Shown piece after piece: positions 18,843 through 32,965 of a stretch of DNA of 42,989 nucleotides. This stretch comes from Minisyncoccota bacterium (GTDB taxonomy: Bacteria > Patescibacteriota > Minisyncoccia > Phycocordibacterales > UBA9973). The stretch is from NCBI GenBank assembly GCA_043718505.1, contig JAYSVN010000037.1, positions 1 through 42,989 on the forward strand. Reading direction: 5' to 3'. A model generated the notes under the pieces. It did no database searches, was not told the origin of the DNA, and saw only the letters and a program-made list of their open reading frames with translations. Position numbers and translations under genes: made by a program. Positions within the stretch are counted from its first letter, which is position 1; each line of letters begins with the position of its first letter.

Positions 18843-20240
18843 TTAAATACCAAGTTCTTTGAGCTGAGCTTTTGAAACTTCACTTGGTGCTTCCATCATG
18901 AGGTCCTTGCCTTCACCCGTTTTTGGAAAAGCAATGACTTCACGAATGTTTGGTTCATTTTGCAAAAGCATAACCAGGCGATCAAGTCCCCAGGCAATAC
19001 CGCCATGAGGTGGTGTTCCATGTCTGAATGCTGAAAGCATGTGGCCAAAATCTTTTTCAATTTTGTCGCCGTCGTGACCAAGTATTTGGAAAACGGTATG
19101 CAGCGCATCAGCTTCATGGTTTCTGATACTACCGCCGCCGATTTCAAAACCGTTGAGAATAATGTCGTACTGACTGGTAATTATGTTTCCAAGATCTTTT
19201 TTCTCAATCAATTTTTCCATATGCTCAGGCAGTGGACGAGAAAACGGATTGTGGGTATACGTCCACTCACCTATCCCATCCGGATTGTCGGATTTATCAG
19301 TGCGCTCGAAAAATGGGAAATCGATTATCCAACAGAAAGTCAGCAAATTCGAATCATCTTTATCTTCACGAATATCAGGTCGGTCATTGCCGTACTTTTC
19401 CATGGCATCCTTATATGAAATCCTCGGAAATGGAATTTCCTGAATTCGCTTCTCAGGATATAATTTTTCAACAATTTCAATCAGAAGTTTTTCGTTTATG
19501 GCCATAATGTCTTCGCGCTCAACGAAACTCATTTCGAGATCGAGTTGAGTAAATTCGGGCTGACGATCGCCGCGACTGTCTTCATCGCGCATGCATTTGG
19601 CAATTTGGAAGTAGCGCTCAATGCCACCGGTCATAAGAAGCTGTTTATATTGCTGAGGAGACTGCGGGAGAGCATAAAAAGTACCCGGCCATTTGCGTGA
19701 TGGCACAATAAAGTCACGTGCGCCCTCTGGTGTCGACTTAGTTAAAATCGGAGTTTCAACTTCAACAAAATATTCATTGCTGAGGAAATTACGAATGAGC
19801 TGAACAATTGATCCGCGAGCTCGAATGTTTTTTTGCAGGCGTTCATTGCGTAAATCAATGTAGCGGTGTTTGAGACGAACGTCTTCATTGATATTACGGG
19901 TATCGGTATGAATATCATATGGCATAGGGTCAGATGTATTCAAAATGTCGATATTTAAAATTTCAAGCTCAATGTCGCCATTTTGCTTATCAGCTTGTTT
20001 ATTTTTCTCGGGGCGTTCATTGACTTTGCCCTGCACGGCAACTACAAATTCTTCACGAACATTTTTGGCAGTTTCAATGGCGGCGCTATTTGGCAAAACT
20101 ACTCCCTGAACTTTACCGGACATATCGCGAAAATCGAAAAAGACCATTTTCCCCTGGTCACGTCGAACATCCACCCATCCTTTTATAGTTACCTCTTCGC
20201 CTTTCTTATCTCCAAGTTCAGTAATCATTGTGCGTCGCAT
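18843..20240 (-). CDS. aspS: Aspartate--tRNA ligase, bacterial type lacking the GAD insertion
   Basis: [47 protein letters not shown]; ATG 20240 is 7 nt after TGCTACTAT. Confidence 0.95.
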
Positions 20241-25152: not shown

Positions 25153-26067
25153 ATGGTTTCAAAGTACAAGCACAAAAATCTCGTCTGGATCGATGTTGAG
25201 GGCCCGACCCGTGACGAGGTCATGCACCTTATGGAGGAATATACTCTGCCTGAGCTTGTCGGTGAGGAATTACTTGAAAAAAGTGTTCGCGGCAAAGTTG
25301 ATCTGTATCCCCACTTCATATACATGGTTCTGCATTTCCCAGTTCTCGGTCGTTCACGTGATGGTGGCAGGTATGAGCAGGAAATTGACTTTATTATCGG
25401 TAAAGATTTTCTGATTACCGTTCACTATGAACCGATCGATCCATTGCATGAATTTTCGCGTGTTTTTGAAATCAAATCTATTCTCGACAAAAGACCGATG
25501 GGCGAACACGCCGGTTTTCTCATTTTCTACATTATGCGTGAGCTCTATAAGTATGCGGAGTCGGAGCTTTTGGAAATTGAAGATGATCTAAGAGTCATTG
25601 AAGAAGATATTTTTGAGGATAAAGAAGAAAAAATGGTGCGTGTTATTTCAAATGTTAATCGTAAGTTGCTCGACTTCAAACAGGCAATACGATTTCATGA
25701 ACATGTTCTTGTTTCTTTGGAGTCAGCCGGTGTTCATTTGTACGGTGATAAGTTTAAACACTATCTTGAATCTATTACCGGAGAATATCGCCGTGTCGAA
25801 AGCATTCTGTCGAGCCACAAAGAAATTCTTGATGATCTCAAAACAACAAATGACGCTCTCCTCACTGCCAAGACAAATGAAACAATTAAGGTTCTTACTA
25901 TTATTTCATTTATCATGCTGCCGCTGACGCTTATTACCGGAGTATTCGGCATGAATAGTACTTTTGTTTTTATTAATACGTATAGAGACTTTATGGTCGT
26001 ACTCAGCGCTATGATTCTCACCGGCGTCGTCCTTATCACTTACTTTAAGCGCAAAAAATGGCTCTAG
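25153..26067 (+). CDS. corA: CorA-family Mg2+/Co2+ transporter
   Basis: C-terminal PLTLITGVFGMN and two TM helices. Confidence 0.92.
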   Translation: MVSKYKHKNLVWIDVEGPTRDEVMHLMEEYTLPELVGEELLEKSVRGKVDLYPHFIYMVLHFPVLGRSRDGGRYEQEIDFIIGKDFLITVHYEPIDPLHEFSRVFEIKSILDKRPMGEHAGFLIFYIMRELYKYAESELLEIEDDLRVIEEDIFEDKEEKMVRVISNVNRKLLDFKQAIRFHEHVLVSLESAGVHLYGDKFKHYLESITGEYRRVESILSSHKEILDDLKTTNDALLTAKTNETIKVLTIISFIMLPLTLITGVFGMNSTFVFINTYRDFMVVLSAMILTGVVLITYFKRKKWL

Positions 26068-27515
26068 CCTTTTATAATACTCTCACTAAAAAAATAGAAG
26101 TTTTCAAACCTATCGAAGCAGCTCATGCCCGAATTTATCATTGCGGTCCGACTGTTTATAATTACGCCCATATCGGTAATTTGCGATCATATGTATTTGC
26201 TGATACCTTGCGACGTGCGCTTGAACTTTCAGGCTTTGCAGTTAAACAAGTAATTAATATTACTGATATCGGTCATTTGGCGAGCGACGCTGATGATGGC
26301 GATGACAAAATGGTAAAAGCTTTGCAGCGTGAAGGTAAACCAATGACACTGGAGGCCATGCGTGAAGTAGCAAATTTTTACAAAGATGCATATGTTGCTG
26401 ATCTTAAAACTCTGCGCATTATGCTGCCGCAAGAAATGCCTTTTGCCAGTGACAACATTCCTGAGGATATTGAAATTATTGAGCGACTAGAGAAAAAGGG
26501 TTACGCCTATGTAACTAGTGATGGCATTTATTTTGATACGAAGAAAATGAAAGACTACGGCAAATTAACTGGACTTACGAAAGAGAAAGGAGAAGCAGCC
26601 GCAGAAAATACTAGTGCGCTGGAATCCCGCATTGGTGAAAATTCAGAGAAACATTCTCCGCGTGATTTTGCGCTTTGGAAATTTTCAAAAAAACACGACG
26701 GAGAAAATAATACTGAGAAAAACAGCGGCATCGGTTTTGAGTCACCATGGGGCGTCGGCTTCCCTGGTTGGCACATAGAGTGTTCGGCCATGTCGCGCAA
26801 ATTTTTGGGTCAGCCTTTTGATATTCATACCGGCGGTATCGATCACATTCCTATTCACCATACCAATGAAATTGCTCAGTCAGAATGCGCATACGGAGAA
26901 CCATTGGCTAATGTTTGGCTGCATAACGGCTTTCTCAATATAGACGGCGAAAAAGTTTCAAAGTCTTTGGGTAATGATATTTATCTTGCTGACGTAGTCA
27001 AAATTGCCCGGGCTGAAAGTTATCGCCTATGGCTTTTGATGGCTCATTACCGCTCGCCTATTAATTTTACCTATGATGCATTACGCGCCGCTGACACTGC
27101 TCTCACGACTTTGTATGAAGCGTTTATTGCTTTACCGAAGGCTGAAGTTGATCCTGACCCTACATATAAAACTTCTTTTATTGAAGCAGTTGAAAATGAT
27201 CTCGATACATCGAAGGCTGTTGCTACTCTTTTTGCAGTTTTCAAAGACGAAGAACTTGATCCCGGCATAAAGCGAACAACTATTTTGTTTTTCGACAGAA
27301 TACTTGGTTTAGGATTTTCTGAACTACCAGTCATTGAAGTACCTTCACATGTAAAATTACTGACACTTGAGCGTGATAAAGCTCGTATTGATAAGGATTT
27401 TGCCAAGGCTGATGAATTGAGAAAAGAAATAGAAAAAGAAGGCTTCACAGTCCGCGACAGTAAAGAAGGTTCACAAGTTGTGCCGGCCAGATTGTCGCCA
27501 GAGCCGGTGAAATAA
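26058..27515 (+). CDS. cysS: Cysteine--tRNA ligase
   Basis: CGPTVY..AHIGN, PGWHIECSAM, DIHTGGIDH..HH.NE, KVSKS. Confidence 0.96.
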   Translation: MALAFYNTLTKKIEVFKPIEAAHARIYHCGPTVYNYAHIGNLRSYVFADTLRRALELSGFAVKQVINITDIGHLASDADDGDDKMVKALQREGKPMTLEAMREVANFYKDAYVADLKTLRIMLPQEMPFASDNIPEDIEIIERLEKKGYAYVTSDGIYFDTKKMKDYGKLTGLTKEKGEAAAENTSALESRIGENSEKHSPRDFALWKFSKKHDGENNTEKNSGIGFESPWGVGFPGWHIECSAMSRKFLGQPFDIHTGGIDHIPIHHTNEIAQSECAYGEPLANVWLHNGFLNIDGEKVSKSLGNDIYLADVVKIARAESYRLWLLMAHYRSPINFTYDALRAADTALTTLYEAFIALPKAEVDPDPTYKTSFIEAVENDLDTSKAVATLFAVFKDEELDPGIKRTTILFFDRILGLGFSELPVIEVPSHVKLLTLERDKARIDKDFAKADELRKEIEKEGFTVRDSKEGSQVVPARLSPEPVK

Positions 27516-27523
27516 TTAGATAG

Positions 27524-28636
27524 TTATGGATAACTTCTCTGGTTTTTAAGTCTGGGATATATAATGACATCTTTTATATTTTTATAACCAAGTGCCCAAG
27601 TAACAAAACGTTCGATCCCTAGGCCAAAGCCACTTGTATTTTTATATCCTGTTATTTTTCTAAGATTTATATACCAATCGTATGACTCTGATTTAATATT
27701 TTGCCTTTTAAGTGATATAAGCATCTCGCTAACATTATCCTGTCTTTGCCCTGCTCCCAATACTTCCCCGCCAAATGATCCCTCTACTATTGGTGGTACA
27801 ATCAAATCAGCATTTATTACCCTATTTTTTTTCAACGGGTCTGGCTTCTGATAAAACGGTGACATATCCCTTTCAAAACCTGTGATCCAAAATGGAACTT
27901 TTTGATTTAGTAAATGAGCAAGGATTATTTCACCATCTGGATCAATACAACGTCCAATTTTGTCTTTTCTAATATTTTTATTAAATCCATTTTTCTCTAA
28001 TATTTCAATTGCTTCATCAAAAGTTATTTGTAAAAATTTCTTTTGTATAATTGTTTCTTGTAAGATTTTTTTGGTTAATACCGGGGACACAGAAATTTTT
28101 TCTATAATATTATTCATCAGAATTAGACTTTTGCAGATAGTTTTAAAATATTGTTCCGCTATTTCTATTACATTCTCAAGTGTTCCTACCATTTCAAATT
28201 CACAGTGAAAAAATTGATTAAGGTGTCTGCTGTCAGGATTTTCACCTCTTAGAGAAGGCATGTAGCAAAAAACTTTTTCAAAATTTTTTACCAATAAGGG
28301 TTCAAAGCCGAATTGAGCAGAATCAGTTAAGAATGCATTGTACCTTCCGAATTTAACAGGGAGTGCTGTTGAGTTTGAGCCATGTCCCAGCGGTGAAGAA
28401 ATACTCTGTGTAATCATGAAGAGATCAATGTCAGTTGCGTTGCATACATCACTAAAATAGTAGTTTGAAGTAACTTTTATATAATGTCTTAGTACAAGAA
28501 GTGCTTTGTAATATGGATTTACAGAAATATCATAATAGTGAAGGGGCTCCGTCTCGTTCGGTCTCAAAATACCTTCAATTTTCTGAAATATTTTATCTGC
28601 AGCATTGATCTCTATAGTGATATGTTCGTTAATCAT
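27524..28636 (-). CDS. Class IIb (AsnRS-like) synthetase catalytic-domain-only paralog
   Basis: LTDSAQ, motif 2 SLRGE..DSRHLNQF, GEVLGAGQR, YDWY, motif 3 SGFGLGIERF..YPR; no OB-fold anticodon-binding domain. Confidence 0.85.
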   Translation of the reverse strand: MINEHITIEINAADKIFQKIEGILRPNETEPLHYYDISVNPYYKALLVLRHYIKVTSNYYFSDVCNATDIDLFMITQSISSPLGHGSNSTALPVKFGRYNAFLTDSAQFGFEPLLVKNFEKVFCYMPSLRGENPDSRHLNQFFHCEFEMVGTLENVIEIAEQYFKTICKSLILMNNIIEKISVSPVLTKKILQETIIQKKFLQITFDEAIEILEKNGFNKNIRKDKIGRCIDPDGEIILAHLLNQKVPFWITGFERDMSPFYQKPDPLKKNRVINADLIVPPIVEGSFGGEVLGAGQRQDNVSEMLISLKRQNIKSESYDWYINLRKITGYKNTSGFGLGIERFVTWALGYKNIKDVIIYPRLKNQRSYP

Positions 28637-28638
28637 GC

Positions 28639-29622
28639 TTAGTGCTCTATAACTTTAATTTGAATTTTATCTACAGTAGGTGCGATTATGCTTATAGTTC
28701 CCCCAATTGGTAAAGTACCAAGTGGCATTGTGTGGCCAAAATTAAGATTAGCCATGATAGGGATACCGGATAATTCTTTTTTTGATTGAATAATCTTTTC
28801 AAGTAAATCCTTGGTCATTTTTGTCTTTTTCTGGAATCTTCCAATTAAAATTCCCTTCACTCCATTAAAATCAGGCTGATGGATAAACGACTGTAAAATT
28901 CTGTCAAATCTTTCAGGGTTAATCTCCTCATCTTCCTCGATAAGCAATATTGAGTCTTTTAATGATGGCCAGTATTGAGTACCCTGCAAAGCAGCAAGAC
29001 ATCTCGCATGACTTCCAACTGTTCTACCTATAGCCTCGCCTGGGTTTATAACCCAGTAACCCTCATTTGTAAGAAATTCCCTATTCTCTTGATCTAGGTA
29101 CCACGCATCGTCACTCCATGTTTCAGAAGGTTTAAAATCATATGGTTCATCTGTCATACAACATTTAGTAAAATATTCAACAGAATAATCAAAACCTTTT
29201 TTGATTGCCCAACTTGAAAAATGCGGGCCAGTATAAGTAACCATGCTGGTTTTAGCAGTTATCGCATTTGCAATTGCTGTTATATCTGAAAACCCGCAGA
29301 GAATTTTCGGGTATTTTTTTATTAGTTCATAATCCACATAATCGAGTAGTTGATTTGAATTATATCCGCCAATAACAGTTAGCACCGCGTCTACCGTAGG
29401 GTCAGAGAAAGCTTCGTGTAGATCTTCAACCCTAGATTTAATCGGGGAAGAATTAAATTCATCTATTTCATTTACATTCTTTCCAAAACTTAATTTGAAC
29501 CCGAACTTTTGTAAACTATCTATAGCCGCATCTATTGACTCTTTTGATAATATCGACATGCTTCTTGAAAGTGATATTACGCGGATATGTGAATTTTTAT
29601 TTATTTTTTTAGGTATGATCAT
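28639..29622 (-). CDS. S66 serine peptidase, MccF/LD-carboxypeptidase family
   Basis: IGGYNSNQLL, GFSDIT (Ser), LIEEDEE (Glu), FGHT (His); Trp-rich loop WSDDAWY. Confidence 0.9.
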   Translation of the reverse strand: MIIPKKINKNSHIRVISLSRSMSILSKESIDAAIDSLQKFGFKLSFGKNVNEIDEFNSSPIKSRVEDLHEAFSDPTVDAVLTVIGGYNSNQLLDYVDYELIKKYPKILCGFSDITAIANAITAKTSMVTYTGPHFSSWAIKKGFDYSVEYFTKCCMTDEPYDFKPSETWSDDAWYLDQENREFLTNEGYWVINPGEAIGRTVGSHARCLAALQGTQYWPSLKDSILLIEEDEEINPERFDRILQSFIHQPDFNGVKGILIGRFQKKTKMTKDLLEKIIQSKKELSGIPIMANLNFGHTMPLGTLPIGGTISIIAPTVDKIQIKVIEH

Positions 29623-29638
29623 AGGTTATTTTAACTAA

Positions 29639-30745
29639 TTATTTAGCGAGATTAGATTTAATAATATAATCTTCTTTACTTACTGGCATGTTGCTTTTCA
29701 GATAATATTCGTATTTTTCTAAAAAGTCAATTATTTCTTTGCCGACAGAAATTGAATCTTTATACTGGGTGGATTCGTACTTTTCTAAAACTGAGGAAAG
29801 TATATCAAGCGATACATTGCTCTTATTTCTAAAGTAGCTTAACAACTTTGTGTAGGTGCGCAAAAGTCTTTCTTGATTACTTCCGGCTCCTGGTCTCAAG
29901 TCTTCTCTGTATAAAGCCGTACTAACAATGATTGAATCTTCAAGTTTTCTTAAAATTCCATCAGGCATTACCGGCAAGCCTATTACAGGGTAAAAATCAT
30001 TTACATGGCCAACTCTCATAACTTCTTTAAGCATTGTTGTCGTTCCCAAGGCAAGTTCTACACCGATAGGCAAGCCTTTTTCTTCAAGGAGAATGAGGTT
30101 ACCGATATCTTTACACTCGTTGCTATCTACATTTGAAATTGCAAAATTAAAATTTCTACCATTAATTTCGGGTATCCCTATGTTGTGCCTATAATACAAT
30201 TGCGGCTCAGAATCAACCTCAATTTGATCATCATCTAAAAAATTACGGCATACTGCCTTCAGATCAGTATCCTCAGAAGATACCTTTACCTTAATTCTCT
30301 TGCCTTCAATTTGTAGATCATCCTTTATAAAATTAATACCACTTTCAAATAACGTATTTATTTTTTCTGGTTTTACTAATGCGCCGAGACTGGTAAAGTG
30401 AGAACCCCATTTTGGTATATGTGAGTCTTCGAAGGCTGATTTAAGATTTTGTGTCCTAATACATTCTTGGTGCATATAAACACCCTCTTCTGGAATATTT
30501 TTGTCAATTAAAAATTCTTTTAGAACGCTTATATGTGAGCCGATAAACCTAACGGATGAGTCAATTTTAGAGCTTATTGGTACAGATGGAATTTCCCTAT
30601 AGTTATTTCTGTTAAAGCTGGTATCAAAATCATTAACTAGATGCTCAACATAAGCTGGACCATCTTCTCGATGGAAAGTAATACCTTCATATTTTTTATC
30701 ATTATTTAATCCGTTATGAAATTCAGAGGTAAAATTTTTCTCCAT
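29639..30745 (-). CDS. Truncated AlaRS-like (class IIc) catalytic-domain protein
   Basis: ISSKIDSSVRF (cf. DPTLLF), QECIRTQN (cf. QxCxR), HFTSLG (cf. FFEMLG), LEDSI...LRPG...RLLR (cf. IADH...P...YVLR); no editing or C-Ala domain. Confidence 0.7.
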   Translation of the reverse strand: MEKNFTSEFHNGLNNDKKYEGITFHREDGPAYVEHLVNDFDTSFNRNNYREIPSVPISSKIDSSVRFIGSHISVLKEFLIDKNIPEEGVYMHQECIRTQNLKSAFEDSHIPKWGSHFTSLGALVKPEKINTLFESGINFIKDDLQIEGKRIKVKVSSEDTDLKAVCRNFLDDDQIEVDSEPQLYYRHNIGIPEINGRNFNFAISNVDSNECKDIGNLILLEEKGLPIGVELALGTTTMLKEVMRVGHVNDFYPVIGLPVMPDGILRKLEDSIIVSTALYREDLRPGAGSNQERLLRTYTKLLSYFRNKSNVSLDILSSVLEKYESTQYKDSISVGKEIIDFLEKYEYYLKSNMPVSKEDYIIKSNLAK

Positions 30746-30754
30746 AAAATAAAT

Positions 30755-31549
30755 TTATTTAATTTGACAAATAATGAATATCAAGAATTTCCTTTTTGGA
30801 AAAAGTTGTTCAGTCACTTTTCCCAGAGATTTAATGATCCACTTCGGGGTTTCAGTAATTAATGGGTTTCCAAAATATTTAACATCTATATGCTCTATGG
30901 TTCTATTTGTTACGCGAACAGCATTTTCTATTATTGGAATTAGTTTTTTGGCACTATACCTTTTTTCAGAGCCAAGCCGATATCCGGGAATAAACTTTAG
31001 GAACGGTAGCTTACTGAGAATTTTGGCTTTAATAATAGCCGGCGAACGAAAATTTGGTACTGCAATAGCAAGGCAGCCTTTGGTCGCCACTACCCTTACC
31101 ATTTCTGTAAGCATTTTTTTGACACTTTCTGAATCATAGTGCTCCACAACCCCAATATTCCAGACCAGATTAAAACTTTTATCTTTGAATGGCATGTTAA
31201 AAATATTGCCTTCAACATACTTTATATTTTGGGCATGAAACTTTTCAGCTAAAAATTGTGCGTAATTGAGTGCCTCTATTGATATATCAAGAAATGTTCT
31301 ATCGTAATCTGCTCCAAGAAGTATCGATGCTTTTCCTGACCCGCTTCCAGCTTCAAGTATTTTTGGGTCTTCAAATTTAGAGATTAGTGTTTTAAAATAT
31401 AGAACTATATCCATATAATATAATTCCCACCAATATGAAGAATACTTCTTAAATTCGTGACTTCCTTTTTGTAATTCTTTTAAAAAAATATTACTCCAGT
31501 TTTCATTTTCTTCTTCGATTATTTTTGATATTTCTTTGGAATATTTCAT
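30755..31549 (-). CDS. Class I SAM-dependent methyltransferase
   Basis: ILEAGSGSG, LDIS, GNIFNMPF, NIGVVEH, VPN. Confidence 0.88.
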   Translation of the reverse strand: MKYSKEISKIIEEENENWSNIFLKELQKGSHEFKKYSSYWWELYYMDIVLYFKTLISKFEDPKILEAGSGSGKASILLGADYDRTFLDISIEALNYAQFLAEKFHAQNIKYVEGNIFNMPFKDKSFNLVWNIGVVEHYDSESVKKMLTEMVRVVATKGCLAIAVPNFRSPAIIKAKILSKLPFLKFIPGYRLGSEKRYSAKKLIPIIENAVRVTNRTIEHIDVKYFGNPLITETPKWIIKSLGKVTEQLFPKRKFLIFIICQIK

Positions 31550-31564
31550 AAACAACAACGGGGG

Positions 31565-32965
31565 TTATTTCAGTGCCATCTTAACCGTAAACGTTGCACC
31601 CTGGCCAACACCCGGTGAATCAGCTGAAATCTTGGCTTTGTGCGCTTCTACAATTTGTTTTACCAGGTAAAGTCCAAGCCCTGAGCCGCCGGCATTCATT
31701 TTTTCGCCTTCGCCGCGATTAAATTTGCCGAATAGTTTTTCCTTGGTTTGAGGGGACATACCGATGCCCGAATCAGTAATTGAAATCACGGCTTCACTTC
31801 CCTCTTTTTTAATTGAGAGCTTAACAAAACCTTTTTCAGTGTATTTAATTGAATTATCGAGCAGATTGAGCACAACCTGGCGAAACTTTACCGGATCGGC
31901 ATTAACCATGCATGGCTTGGCGCTATCATGATCATAGCTAAGCTCCAGACCTTTACTTTTAGCAGTCAGGGAAAATTCATTGTAGAGGGCCGATGTAATG
32001 AGTTCGAGATCAACATCCTGAAATGCATATTGCATCCCGCCCTGCTCAATTTTAGCCACATCAAGCAGGTCTTCAACAACATTAGCCAAGTTGAGACTGG
32101 ACTGGAAAATACGGCTAATTGGTTCGTGCTGAGTTTCAGTAATTGCACCGTATGAATTTTCAAGAAGCATTGAAGTATAACCTTTAATGGCCGTAATCGG
32201 GCTACGTAATTGGTGAGAAGCCAGCGAGAGAAATTCTGTCTTAAGTTTATCGAGACTTTTTAGTTTTTCATTGGCATCCTGGAGGGCCTTATACAAATAG
32301 GCCTTATCAAGTGCCACCGCTACAACGTCCGTCACGCTTTTAATAGCTTCTTTTTCATGTTCAGAAAGCGAATTATAGTCACGATTGAAACCGAACAAGA
32401 GAACACCGATAATTTTATTCTGCGTTATAAGCGGAAAAGCTAAAATGGTCTTGATGTTAGCCGCTTCGCGTATTATGTCGAGCTTTTCAGTAGGAATAAA
32501 TCCGCTCCAGACATCGGCAATATTATTTGTTAGAGCTGAAGCTTTGTATTGGATTAGTTTTTCAAAAAATGGCTGTTTAGATGCTGCAGTAATAGTAGCG
32601 TCCTTAAAGTGAAAACCGACCTGGTCAAGAGCGGCAAATAAACGATCTGATTTTGAAAAGTGGAGCGGCTCAAGCGAATCTGCTTTCTCGTTAAAAACAA
32701 AAATACCCGCTATTTCAAGGTTAAGATCTTTTCTGACGGCATCGGAAACATCATTGGCGAGCGTGATAGGATCAAGTTCAAGCAAGCTAATCTGATACAG
32801 TTTCCTCAAAAGAGACAACGTCTTGTTGACGATGGCCAGTTCGAGATTGTGTTTGTAGACTTCTTCGTTTATCTGTCGCAGACGATCCTCACTGTTTGAT
32901 TCAACTGGTTCTTTTGATGCGGCAGGATTTTTTAATTCTGGTTGAGTGTTATCAGTGTCAGGCAT
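31565..32965 (-). CDS. Soluble GAF-domain histidine kinase
   Basis: GAF-like region (PL...IIGVL), ASHQLRSP, NLLDNSIKY, DSGIG, GSGLGLY; no TM. Confidence 0.9.
   Translation of the reverse strand: MPDTDNTQPELKNPAASKEPVESNSEDRLRQINEEVYKHNLELAIVNKTLSLLRKLYQISLLELDPITLANDVSDAVRKDLNLEIAGIFVFNEKADSLEPLHFSKSDRLFAALDQVGFHFKDATITAASKQPFFEKLIQYKASALTNNIADVWSGFIPTEKLDIIREAANIKTILAFPLITQNKIIGVLLFGFNRDYNSLSEHEKEAIKSVTDVVAVALDKAYLYKALQDANEKLKSLDKLKTEFLSLASHQLRSPITAIKGYTSMLLENSYGAITETQHEPISRIFQSSLNLANVVEDLLDVAKIEQGGMQYAFQDVDLELITSALYNEFSLTAKSKGLELSYDHDSAKPCMVNADPVKFRQVVLNLLDNSIKYTEKGFVKLSIKKEGSEAVISITDSGIGMSPQTKEKLFGKFNRGEGEKMNAGGSGLGLYLVKQIVEAHKAKISADSPGVGQGATFTVKMALK

Follow-up and report, generated by a model that had tools for sequence, protein, structure and literature searches.

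What might four tightly packed genes, two of which resemble truncated aminoacyl-tRNA synthetases (aaRS), do together in the small genome of a Minisyncoccota bacterium? The genes lie in a 42,989-nt contig, hereafter the window, and a first-pass annotation had suggested that they make, or defend against, an aminoacylated nucleotide or amide metabolite. The ORF listing of the window places four co-directional minus-strand ORFs in a block at 27524-31558, with intergenic gaps of 2, 16 and 9 nt. This agrees with the packing first described; the end given there, 31549, is an in-frame ATG three codons inside the TTG at 31558, and an alternative start for the methyltransferase. The features are:

26058-27515, plus strand: cysS, left flank of the island, convergent with the histidine-kinase gene
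27516..31564, no strand: inserted island of ~4.06 kb, flanked by cysS and a histidine-kinase gene, with empty sites in relatives
27524..28636, minus strand: AgnA-like, anticodon-less AsnRS-like class II adenylate-forming enzyme (370 aa; PF00152)
28639..29622, minus strand: MccF-clade S66 serine peptidase (327 aa; both S66 Pfam domains, Ser-Glu-His triad)
29639..30745, minus strand: truncated AlaRS-like protein (368 aa; family-level AlaRS homology)
30755..31558, minus strand: class I SAM-dependent methyltransferase (267 aa from TTG 31558; Methyltransf_25, _11, _31)
31565-32965, minus strand: histidine-kinase gene, right flank of the island

The block is AT-richer than its surroundings, as had been noted, with a GC content of 33.4% against 41.3% genome-wide; 1-kb windows give 0.32-0.36 across it and 0.41-0.42 adjoining it. 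In three genomes of the same genus the site is empty, the flanks lying 1 (G001), 15 (G005) and 22 (G004) nt apart, and in G006 and G003 the same site carries other cargo. A search at the island found no terminal repeats or integrase. One 14,345-nt contig from each of two runs, possibly the source data, crosses both junctions with 0 differences. Our conclusion is that the four-gene block is a precise foreign insertion, horizontally acquired.

Among PDB entries, the S66 peptidase matches Lmo1638 and BA_5613 at E~1e-106, where 'MccF-like' is the depositors' label only, followed by B. anthracis MccF (5e-38), E. coli MccF (1e-32) and LdcA (7e-17). This ranking, about 1e-106 for entries so labelled, 1e-38 to 1e-32 for MccF and about 1e-17 for LdcA, bears out the view that the protein is MccF-like rather than LdcA-type; as an LdcA it failed the equivalog cut-off, scoring 89.7 against 378. 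Its triad, S112/E230/H297, aligns with S118/E243/H311 of MccF, and the Ser, Glu and His are kept in 24, 23 (plus one Asp) and 24 of 24 cassette copies respectively. The adenine-stacking W186 of MccF is Leu, Ile or Met in a strict alignment, with a conserved Trp two residues off. By our reading the protein has no obvious signal peptide and is predicted to be cytoplasmic.

The AsnRS-like protein carries the PF00152 class II core (1.4e-33, residues 34-363) and no anticodon domain. It aligns with pAgK84 AgnA (28% identity, E=3e-41), its residues 18-362 (of 370) pairing with AgnA residues 13-345 (of 353), which indicates that it is a full-length AgnA homologue and upholds the proposed kinship with that truncated AsnRS; the L102 and L103 variants, which adjoin AlaRS-like and S66 genes, reach 41% identity to AgnA. 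Across 19 copies no change is seen in Arg/Glu of motif 2, the GxGQR segment or GFGLGxER of motif 3. As asnS the protein scores 169.3 bits against a curated cut-off of 342.6, and as the asparagine synthetase AsnA 143.8 against 389. These shortfalls, together with the AgnA alignment, speak against a plain asparagine synthetase, an identity that the first-pass annotation had itself raised. Weak NCBIfam matches to EpmA (E=4e-5) cover a C-terminal motif only. As to an Asn-tRNA route elsewhere in the genome, GatB is present, but no AsnRS over the cut-off was found; there is thus no AsnRS for free asparagine to feed, and translation needs no free asparagine.

Taken alone, the AlaRS-like protein of the window gives no Pfam, NCBIfam or PDB sequence match, and its AlaRS identity stands only at the level of the family, whose profile matches solved AlaRS catalytic domains (E=2.9e-9). 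Of the 53 aligned members, 38 match PF01411, and hhalign pairs the family with the AlaRS encoded in this genome at a probability of 94.5% (E=7.7e-8, AlaRS residues 5-338). The family comprises 341 clusters at E<=1e-30, every named member being 'hypothetical'. The protein is truncated and has the catalytic fold together with the start of the tRNA-recognition domain. Its ATP site is degenerate, and the motif 3 Arg position holds Thr in 49/53 members and Arg or Lys in 0, while R97, F117, D213, N216 and E230 are each found in 53/53 and W113 in 47/53 (the other 6 having Tyr). Because a complete housekeeping AlaRS of 596 aa is encoded elsewhere in the genome (C29), where a full-length alaS had been sought, the gene does not represent one half of a split AlaRS.

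The protein resembles AcmF, which acts in ascamycin biosynthesis as an Ala-tRNA-dependent transferase. AcmF is likewise a truncated AlaRS; it retains aminoacylation and tRNA-recognition domains and has a D232E change and contacts at R93, W100/F104 and E216/Q219. Judged from published residue numbers and spacing, not from a sequence alignment, the conserved R97, W113/F117, D213/N216 and E230 and the missing motif 3 Arg fit this description: W113/F117 show the same W-x3-F spacing as W100/F104, E230 places a Glu at the substrate Asp position (compare D232E), and N and E are spaced by 14, close to the 13 of AcmF and unlike the 23 of the AlaRS encoded in this genome; the N219Q change of AcmF is not shared, N216 being invariant. 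The AlaRS-like protein matches published AcmF features, making it a candidate aminoacyl-tRNA-dependent transferase that probably lacks ATP-dependent activation of alanine. The two aaRS paralogues first reported are both present, with this one resembling a transferase. For the methyltransferase, four known enzymes were compared: it matches AgnB1 at 31% over 109 aa (E=6.6e-8, SAM-binding core only) and does not match AgnC3, Arad_15007 or MccD. The remaining gene identities hold (PF00152 without an anticodon domain, both Peptidase_S66 domains, and the class I SAM-dependent methyltransferase domains).

Do these genes travel together? From 85 loci fetched, 83 had the AlaRS-like gene, 61 of these were distinct and 37 were well flanked (by no less than 1.7 kb and 2.3 kb). 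S66 is found in 37/37 of the last set (within 300 nt in 34), the AsnRS-like gene in 33 and the methyltransferase in 29; all three occur together in 29/37, confirming co-occurrence in other genomes. In 24/37 there is also a phosphohydrolase of HD or HAD type. The window copy has none, so that the four-gene set is correct here, but the canonical cassette adds this fifth gene. The hosts are mostly CPR lineages, along with one Calothrix plasmid and records whose titles name gamma- and alphaproteobacteria. Within the phylum the AlaRS-like gene is a rare accessory gene, seen in 0/30 relatives and 6/400 other genomes. We conclude that the cassette is a conserved mobile functional unit that recurs in many unrelated bacteria.

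Fusions join the AlaRS-like protein to S66 (L008, 692 aa), methyltransferase (P0157), HD (P0192, 9 members) and GNAT (P0136) domains, and there is one with a receiver domain (P0160); HIT genes are linked to the AlaRS-like gene in L024-L028 and others. No exporter or uptake-moiety gene is conserved in the cassette, ABC genes lying close by in only a few loci. Decaying cassettes have frameshifts and stops in the methyltransferase, AlaRS-like and AsnRS-like genes with S66 intact, as would be expected if S66 were an orphan immunity gene. Median identity of cassette copies to the window protein is 65% for S66, 51.5% for the AsnRS-like protein and 47% for the methyltransferase, and the MccF-like S66 subfamily occurs without the other cassette genes in about two dozen of 400 sampled genomes. 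As separate observations, one cassette version is linked to a P-loop protein and a radical SAM enzyme, the latter falling far under the viperin cut-off (54 against 180 bits), and a distant AlaRS-like gene (L032) adjoins an alanine-racemase-fold gene.

We found no published description of this widespread cassette. Its parts match three known pathways for producing or disarming antibiotics that act as activated-amino-acid mimics. In the agrocin 84 agn cluster (pAgK84, Rhizobium rhizogenes K84) the annotated order is agnA, a SAM-dependent methyltransferase, the resistant LeuRS agnB2, then MccF-like agnC5 and NirJ-like agnC7. AgnA, for which a phosphoramidate-forming role has been proposed, is anticodon-less and AsnRS-like, as in the cassette; the methyltransferase directly adjoining agnA also has a cassette counterpart, AgnC5 is 26% identical to the cassette S66, AgnB2 parallels the GlyRS of some cassettes, and AgnC7 weakly matches radical SAM genes of some variants. 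However, agn has 17 genes with sugar, pentanamide and efflux functions, whereas the cassette has 4-5, no exporter, and mostly CPR hosts; agn also lacks an AlaRS-like gene, AgnC1 being unrelated to that family. The N-alanylation module of ascamycin shares a three-part logic with the cassette: a truncated AlaRS-like protein that has Glu in place of Asp and has lost the ATP site, a hydrolase to reverse the aminoacylation (the putative role of S66 here), and an extra full-length aaRS, found in some copies of the cassette. It differs in that AcmE is a secreted alpha/beta hydrolase rather than a cytoplasmic S66 peptidase, the extra aaRS is a resistant AlaRS (AcmD) rather than GlyRS, and AcmF has Gln where the cassette family keeps N216; no sulfamate-pathway genes were seen among the cassette neighbours scanned. 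Microcin C offers MccF, 27% identical (E. coli) with the same Ser-Glu-His triad, in an operon, mccABCDEF, that holds S66, GNAT and class I SAM-dependent methyltransferase-fold enzymes; counterparts of MccE (GNAT) and MccH (HIT) appear in cassette variants. The cassette lacks the ThiF/MccB adenylyltransferase, ribosomal precursor peptide and MFS exporter, and its methyltransferase has no BLAST match to MccD. S66/MccF and HIT/MccH detoxify aminoacyl-nucleotides, as does the GNAT family, and S66, HIT and GNAT are each linked to the AlaRS-like gene.

On balance, we favour synthesis by the cassette of an aminoacyl-nucleotide aaRS inhibitor, with S66 providing immunity. Product, target and each step of the chemistry are inferred. 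The AgnA-like enzyme would use ATP to form a nucleotide-amide scaffold, onto whose amine the AlaRS-like protein, in its former adenylate pocket and as in AcmF, would place Ala, Gly or Ser taken from charged tRNA. The methyltransferase would decorate the product and, in most other copies, the HD or HAD phosphohydrolase would trim it. The result would be a stable aminoacyl-adenylate mimic that inhibits an aminoacyl-tRNA synthetase, the host being protected by the cassette through S66 cleavage of the aminoacyl-nitrogen bond. The make-or-defend proposal is supported, all computational refutation tests named with it having come out in its favour, and the function is putative. The favoured reading draws on the conserved gene set, the fusions, the matches to known systems and to AcmF, the linked detoxifying families, the extra GlyRS of some versions, the decay pattern and the rarity of the gene. 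Weighing against it are the lack of a conserved exporter or uptake-moiety gene, the residues aligned with W186 of MccF, the retained N216, the restriction of the AgnB1 match to the SAM-binding core, the single GlyRS of the window genome and the occurrence of the S66 subfamily without its partners.

The same genes could instead form an island of resistance alone, detoxifying imported aminoacyl-nucleotide antibiotics while making nothing toxic: S66 would cleave, the phosphohydrolase would degrade the nucleotide, and the two aaRS-like proteins would be inhibitor-binding decoys. S66 being the best conserved part, its persistence as other cassette genes decay, its subfamily's occurrence alone in many CPR genomes and the missing conserved exporter would all suit this. 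We consider it unlikely, given that the catalytic class II motifs are all kept in 19/19 AsnRS-like copies and the methyltransferase in 29/37 loci, which are features of synthesis and not of a decoy. Furthermore, the closest homologue, AgnA, belongs to a producer cluster, and were S66 enough, selection would not maintain the other three genes in hosts whose genomes measure 0.6-0.8 Mb. Equally unlikely in our view is intracellular growth control or anti-phage defence, in which a triggered aaRS-inhibiting nucleotide stops translation and S66 is the antidote. The patchy, island-like distribution at a variable site, the lack of an exporter, the receiver-domain fusion P0160 and the version with radical SAM and P-loop proteins are consistent with it, but PADLOC gives only a generic methyltransferase-domain match, the AlaRS-like gene was unmatched in the phage and plasmid collections searched, no trigger or sensor gene was seen conserved in the cassette, and the linked radical SAM enzyme is under the viperin cut-off.

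We are more sceptical of a role in cell-wall or amino-acid metabolism, in which murein peptides would be the substrate of S66 as an LD-carboxypeptidase, the AsnRS-like protein would be an amidating ligase or an AsnA-type asparagine synthetase, and alanine would be added to a peptide stem by the AlaRS-like protein. S66 does belong to the LD-carboxypeptidase family, AsnA models are among the NCBIfam matches, and L032 has its alanine-racemase-fold neighbour. Against this, the scores fall far short of the curated cut-offs for LdcA and AsnA, S66 is much nearer MccF-type proteins, free asparagine is not needed for translation, and the methyltransferase, nucleotide phosphohydrolase, HIT and extra GlyRS are left without a role; absence of the AlaRS-like gene from 30/30 close relatives also argues against a core wall function. 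Least probable of all is macromolecule modification, with a protein or RNA aminoacylated by the two synthetase-like enzymes, modified further by the methyltransferase and restored by S66, which would reverse the mark. Anticodon-less class II paralogues with such macromolecule-modifying roles exist, EpmA/GenX acting on EF-P, and the AsnRS-like protein has its EpmA matches; these are marginal, however, the closest full-length relative is from a small-molecule cluster, no conserved target gene was seen in the cassette, and partners of the HD/HAD and HIT types suggest that nucleotides are involved.

If the cassette does make an aaRS inhibitor, the GlyRS carried by some versions may provide a second immunity, by target replacement. 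In the window the cassette lacks a linked aaRS, and the genome encodes a single GlyRS. Both tested genomes with a cassette-internal GlyRS hold two full-length copies; two GlyRS matches occur in no more than 3/401 sampled genomes, and they are weak in each of the three (best E-values from 1e-51 to 1e-76). The cassette-linked copies form a clade (99/97) apart from the hosts' native copies, which group with the GlyRS of the window genome (100/99). This evidence comes from two genomes with similar cassette layouts, probably of one lineage. The foreign second GlyRS resembles a self-resistance gene, pointing to GlyRS as the putative target in those versions.

The first-pass annotation had read this part of the window as a candidate aminoacyl-nucleotide biosynthesis or immunity system, composed of two truncated aminoacyl-tRNA synthetase (aaRS) paralogues, an MccF-like peptidase and a methyltransferase. 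Its description of tightly packed, AT-rich genes on the minus strand holds: the four open reading frames are co-directional, with gaps of 2, 16 and 9 nt, and the GC content of the cassette is 33.4%, against 41.3% for the 741-kb genome.

Genes of the cassette (window coordinates)
27524-28636, minus strand: AsnRS-like protein, 370 aa; Pfam class II D/K/N synthetase core without an anticodon domain
28639-29622, minus strand: S66 peptidase, 327 aa; both S66 peptidase domains (Pfam)
29639-30745, minus strand: AlaRS-like protein, 368 aa; AlaRS relationship at the family level
30755-31558, minus strand: methyltransferase, 267 aa from a TTG start; class I SAM-methyltransferase domains (Pfam)

The gene end at 31549 in the first-pass annotation is the next in-frame ATG of the methyltransferase gene after this TTG. 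A histidine-kinase gene lies co-directionally 6 nt upstream of the cassette. Using a 9.5-kb query across the locus, we find that cysS and the histidine-kinase gene are 1, 15 and 22 nt apart in the same-genus genomes G001, G005 and G004 respectively, and that the sequence absent from these genomes is exactly the ∼4.06-kb block. The cassette is an inserted island. In each of two runs from one study, runs that may themselves be the source data, a 14,345-nt contig spans both junctions without difference. The junctions showed neither terminal repeats, direct or inverted, nor a target duplication or an integrase, and a promoter and terminator scan stayed at the level of shuffled sequence (30 found where 26.6 were expected, and one terminator against 5.8). 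The cysS/histidine-kinase junction (window 27516-31564) is a variable site within the genus. It is occupied in genome G006 (locus L041, G006:C9:23300-25700) by a GNAT acetyltransferase (Acetyltransf_3/4) and small ORFs, and in G003 (L042, G003:C16:4000-5500) by the sole trpS of that genome.

None of 30 relatives, seven of them of the same genus, yielded the AlaRS-like gene, and six of a sample of 400 other genomes of the phylum have it; its protein gave no tblastn match in plasmid or phage collections, from which records near the window's genome were possibly excluded. Scans of genome and metagenome contigs yielded 27 and 58 loci respectively. By tblastn the AlaRS-like gene is in 83 of these 85 (the other two have no match of at least 60 aa), and dropping 22 near-identical duplicates leaves 61 distinct loci at 97% nucleotide identity. 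Partner counts use the 37 loci with at least 1.7 kb upstream and at least 2.3 kb downstream, the other 24 having too little flank.

Partners of the AlaRS-like gene in these 37 loci
S66 peptidase: 37/37, in 34 of these no more than 300 nt from the AlaRS-like gene
AsnRS-like protein: 33/37
Methyltransferase: 29/37
HD or HAD phosphohydrolase: 24/37
S66, AsnRS-like and methyltransferase together: 29/37
All five genes together: 24/37

The commonest order is HD/HAD, methyltransferase, AlaRS-like, S66, AsnRS-like. The phosphohydrolase is missing from the window copy and from loci L017, L019, L031, L033 and L111; elsewhere the equivalent position is taken by an HD protein in some loci and a HAD protein in others, which looks like the replacement of one phosphohydrolase by another. 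No exporter is conserved in the cassette. Compared with the window proteins, the median identities are 65% (S66), 51.5% (AsnRS-like protein), 47% (methyltransferase) and roughly 41% (AlaRS-like protein), the last an estimate from the listed identities. The recorded hosts comprise several CPR groups, plasmid 2 of Calothrix parasitica NIES-267, and MAGs titled as gamma- or alphaproteobacterial. The MccF-like S66 subfamily extends beyond the cassette, occurring in 30 of the 400 other phylum genomes; within that sample, the copies at 63-64% identity are those adjoining AlaRS-like and AsnRS-like genes. Close homologues of the AsnRS-like protein occur in five sampled genomes, three of which also carry the AlaRS-like gene. 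In the literature searched, which leaves most subscription-journal papers outside it, we found no paper coupling MccF/S66 with an AlaRS-like gene, and no AcmF homologue described outside ascamycin. We conclude that the cassette is a real, conserved unit of foreign origin, undescribed in that literature.

The window genome is 96.6% complete. The full-length alaS whose presence elsewhere the first-pass annotation proposed to check is there, as a separate 596-aa ORF on contig C29, and with a complete AlaRS in the genome we rule out the AlaRS-like protein as half of a split AlaRS. By eye, this short AlaRS (L001 1489-3279) keeps the His and Cys motifs of the editing domain and apparently has no C-terminal domain. 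The same annotation had raised the route to Asn-tRNA: no ORF exceeds the AsnRS cut-off, the top asnS match in the genome being the cassette AsnRS-like protein itself, and GatB is present. For these two reasons the AspRS of the window is probably of the non-discriminating type. This AspRS (18843-20240, minus strand) exceeds the bacterial aspS cut-off, with profile positions 292-420, the insertion domain, unmatched; a third ORF with a class II D/K/N core, on contig C2, was taken as LysRS by eye. Thus, given that AlaRS, AspRS and GatB are present and no ORF exceeds the AsnRS cut-off, the cassette genes are not parts of split synthetases, and no AsnRS depends on them for its supply.

In the AsnRS-like protein, the motif 2 Arg/Glu, the GxGQR segment and the motif 3 GFGLGxER show no variation across 19 copies (the window protein and 18 ORFs of more than 330 aa from the 27 genome loci), and from these residues it looks like an active adenylate-forming enzyme. 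The protein scores 169.3 bits against the asnS equivalog cut-off of 342.6, its match to that profile beginning at position 183 of 455, and 143.8 bits against the AsnA cut-off (PRK06462.1-5) of 389; the anticodon-binding domain expected of an AsnRS is absent. It aligns at full length with AgnA of pAgK84, the 'agrocin 84 synthetase' (residues 18-362 of 370 against 13-345 of 353; 28% identity, E=3e-41), in an alignment that takes in an N-terminal SSPxGxGS segment outside the coverage of AsnRS structures. Furthermore, loci L102 and L103 carry AsnRS-like genes 41% identical to AgnA, adjoining AlaRS-like and S66 genes. The agn cluster as annotated contains agnA, a SAM-methyltransferase gene and the gene for a resistant LeuRS, agnB2, followed by the MccF-like agnC5 and the NirJ-like agnC7. 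A review presents AgnA as the proposed former of the phosphoramide bond to AMP (N-acyl phosphoramidate). The AlaRS-like family is not related to AgnC1 (probability 0.2%), and BLAST matched the cassette methyltransferase to none of MccD, AgnC3 and Arad_15007.

Identification of the second paralogue as an AlaRS homologue stands for the family and fails for the window protein alone, which has no Pfam, NCBIfam or PDB match (against solved structures, chance level only, E=1.6). At 368 aa and without a PF01411 match over cut-off, it is not a canonical AlaRS, for which full catalytic, editing and C-terminal domains are required. The family comprises at least 115 clusters at 90% identity, from which 53 matches were hand-picked to span the score range and aligned; PF01411 is matched by 38 of the 53, and the profile built from them matches solved AlaRS catalytic domains (E=2.9e-9). 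With hhalign, the family matches residues 5-338 of the genome's own AlaRS (probability 94.5%, E=7.7e-8). An exhaustive profile search recovered 341 clusters (50% identity) at E<=1e-30 and 1040 at E<=1e-3. All named members encountered are 'hypothetical protein', and the homologue P0017 meets nothing but 'hypothetical protein' clusters in the protein atlas.

The alignment shows a particular pattern of loss and retention. At the position of the class II motif 3 Arg the 53 members have Thr (49), Val (2), Met (1) or Ala (1), never Arg or Lys, and the substrate-binding Asp (of VDTGAGLER in the genome's AlaRS) is Glu (E230) in 53/53. The motif 2 Arg is kept (R97, 53/53), as is an aromatic pair, W113 (47/53, with Tyr in the other six) and F117 (53/53). 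The EIWN.V segment of the genome's AlaRS becomes D213-x-x-N216-x-I218, the hairpin between these elements is nine residues shorter than in that AlaRS, and the helical-domain motifs are conserved.

AcmF of the ascamycin pathway offers a parallel to this pattern, drawn through published residue numbers and spacing rather than by alignment. According to a 2026 review, AcmF is a truncated AlaRS-like protein with aminoacylation and tRNA-recognition domains only, without most ATP-binding residues and with two changes, N219Q and D232E, the latter essential; Arg93, Trp100/Phe104 and Glu216/Gln219 make its contacts with the nucleoside substrate, and it moves alanine from Ala-tRNA onto a sulfamate nitrogen. 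The same review describes AcmD as an extra, resistant AlaRS supplying Ala-tRNA, and AcmE as a hydrolase reversing the AcmF reaction. Like AcmF, the cassette family is truncated to the aminoacylation and tRNA-recognition domains and has the Arg, the W-x3-F pair, the acidic-x-x-amide pair and the Glu, with a short spacing in common (14 residues, against 13 in AcmF). Unlike AcmF, with its N219Q, the family has an invariant N216 (53/53).

The triad of the S66 peptidase, S112/E230/H297, aligns with MccF S118/E243/H311. Across 24 cassette copies (ORFs of 315-350 aa from the 27 genome loci, BLAST E<=1e-60), S112 is conserved in 24, E230 in 23 (with one Asp) and H297 in 24. The column of MccF W186 holds Leu, Ile, Met or Val in all 24; a conserved Trp (W174) stands two residues upstream of it, next to a 5-residue gap; the mapping is ambiguous. 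The protein falls under the LdcA NCBIfam equivalog cut-off (89.7 against 378 bits), and its PDB matches to LdcA entries are E=7e-17 or weaker, against 1e-106 for MccF-like entries. A review gives the S118 position and the stacking of adenine by W186, and states that processed microcin C loses its aspartate to MccF and that MccH, a HIT enzyme, splits the phosphoramide.

A full-length GlyRS lies within or beside the cassette at 7 of the 61 distinct loci, in differing arrangements (L009 10085-11485, L013 3376-4848, L087, L088, L089, L095 and L098). Two full-length GlyRS genes are present in each of the two testable genomes, those carrying L009 and L013; the window genome and that of the L033 host have a single one. 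In a sample of 401 genomes, which counts the unpublished G184 (probably also in the AlaRS-like, S66 and AsnRS-like samples, and decisive for none of the claims by itself), at most three have two GlyRS matches, all weak (best E 1e-51 to 1e-76). A maximum-likelihood tree of 28 hand-chosen sequences, one of which (G107) sits on a very long branch and is possibly a mis-picked ORF, places the linked GlyRS of L009, L013, L087, L088 and L098 in one clade (99/97) and groups the other copies of the L009 and L013 hosts with those of the window genome and of the L033 host (100/99). Therefore the linked GlyRS is a foreign extra copy travelling with the cassette, in a small sample of which the two hosts have a common layout. 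It parallels AgnB2 of agrocin 84 and AcmD of ascamycin, and gives a testable prediction of the target.

Fusions and variants tie the parts of the cassette together. Locus L008 encodes a 692-aa fusion of AlaRS-like protein and S66, and elsewhere the AlaRS-like domain is fused to a SAM-methyltransferase (P0157), an HD domain (P0192, nine members), a receiver domain (P0160) or a GNAT domain (P0136). GNAT proteins (MccE/RimL) have a role in microcin C immunity. In an alphaproteobacterial-type variant (L024-L028 and L092-L094), the AlaRS-like gene is accompanied by genes for a radical SAM, a P-loop and a HIT protein and by a convergent S66; AgnC7 weakly matches the radical SAM proteins of cassette variants (E=1e-4 to 4e-3). 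Locus L044 has the AsnRS-like gene, a different SAM-methyltransferase and S66, and L046 a distant AlaRS-like gene with a GT4 glycosyltransferase and S66.

Each part of the cassette has a one-to-one counterpart among the components of the agrocin 84, ascamycin and microcin C systems, and every one of these systems makes or disarms mimics of aminoacyl-adenylates. We infer the product, the target and each chemical step. We think it somewhat better than an even chance that the cassette synthesises an aminoacyl-adenylate mimic, with S66 as the immunity enzyme. The remaining probability goes to four other readings: resistance only, intracellular control or defence, cell-wall or amino-acid metabolism, and the modification of macromolecules, as by EpmA. 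Bearing on the main reading and on the first of these four, frameshifts and in-frame stops interrupt the AlaRS-like, AsnRS-like and methyltransferase genes of L111 (identical to L110 and L112), whose S66 remains intact at 65% identity; a partial form of this decay is seen in L080, L083 and L105. All six are one set of related metagenome contigs. An alternative genetic code is ruled out here because the breaks include frameshifts, and S66 on the same contigs is intact. An S66 that outlives the synthesis genes is the pattern of an immunity gene and is consistent with synthesis of a mimic, and an intact S66 amid decayed partners fits a resistance-only role as well. As for defence, three of the four cassette proteins are unmatched by the PADLOC anti-phage models, and the methyltransferase matches only the methyltransferase domain of mad2.

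Within the preferred reading, that of mimic synthesis with S66 immunity, our fuller proposal is more tentative, and we put it at rather less than an even chance. In this proposal a minimal mobile pathway of four to five genes would join an AgnA-type nucleotide-amide synthetase to an AcmF-type tRNA-dependent aminoacyl transferase, giving a ribosome-independent aminoacyl-nucleotide inhibitor of an aaRS with MccF-type peptidase immunity, across Patescibacteria, cyanobacteria and other phyla; the target would be GlyRS where a spare GlyRS is carried. To our knowledge aminoacyl-adenylate mimics such as microcin C, agrocin 84 and ascamycin are rare, potent inhibitors of protein synthesis, each from one or a few producers. 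The cassette, if so, would be a compact, widely transferred fourth route to them, would give two orphan enzyme families a role, would show that AgnA-type and AcmF-type chemistry can be combined, and would be a small gene set for enzymatic production of aminoacyl-nucleotide analogues. Given the tiny genomes and presumed host-attached life of CPR bacteria, a chemical weapon or growth brake in them would be unexpected, and this would be the first defined antibiotic pathway of these ultra-small bacteria. The plasmid copy in the cultured cyanobacterium C. parasitica NIES-267 (L019) is a tractable entry point.

Several further genes accompany cassette variants. In L024-L028, L092-L094, L099 and L115, the radical SAM (SPASM/NirJ-like), P-loop AAA_18 and HIT genes lie upstream of the AlaRS-like/S66 pair, with S66 convergent and the methyltransferase and AsnRS-like genes absent. 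An Amidohydro_2 gene (PF04909) 3' of the AsnRS-like gene (L088 10951-11979, L098 4858-5904, L091 6938-7996) may be a further accessory component. In one lineage a 243-aa ORF without a Pfam match separates AlaRS-like and S66 genes (L066 8096-8827, L010 2629-3360), and in a Chitinophagaceae MAG (L032 295-2368) a distant AlaRS-like gene (29% identity) is followed by an alanine-racemase-N/D-serine-dehydratase-like gene replacing S66. Other synthetase-related genes also occur nearby: a convergent gene for a 393-aa protein with a weak HisRS-core match (L044 8089-9270, minus strand), a full-length HisRS beside a cassette variant (L096 695-1969), and, read by eye without a family scan, IleRS-like ORFs within a few kb at L009, L018, L024 and L066.
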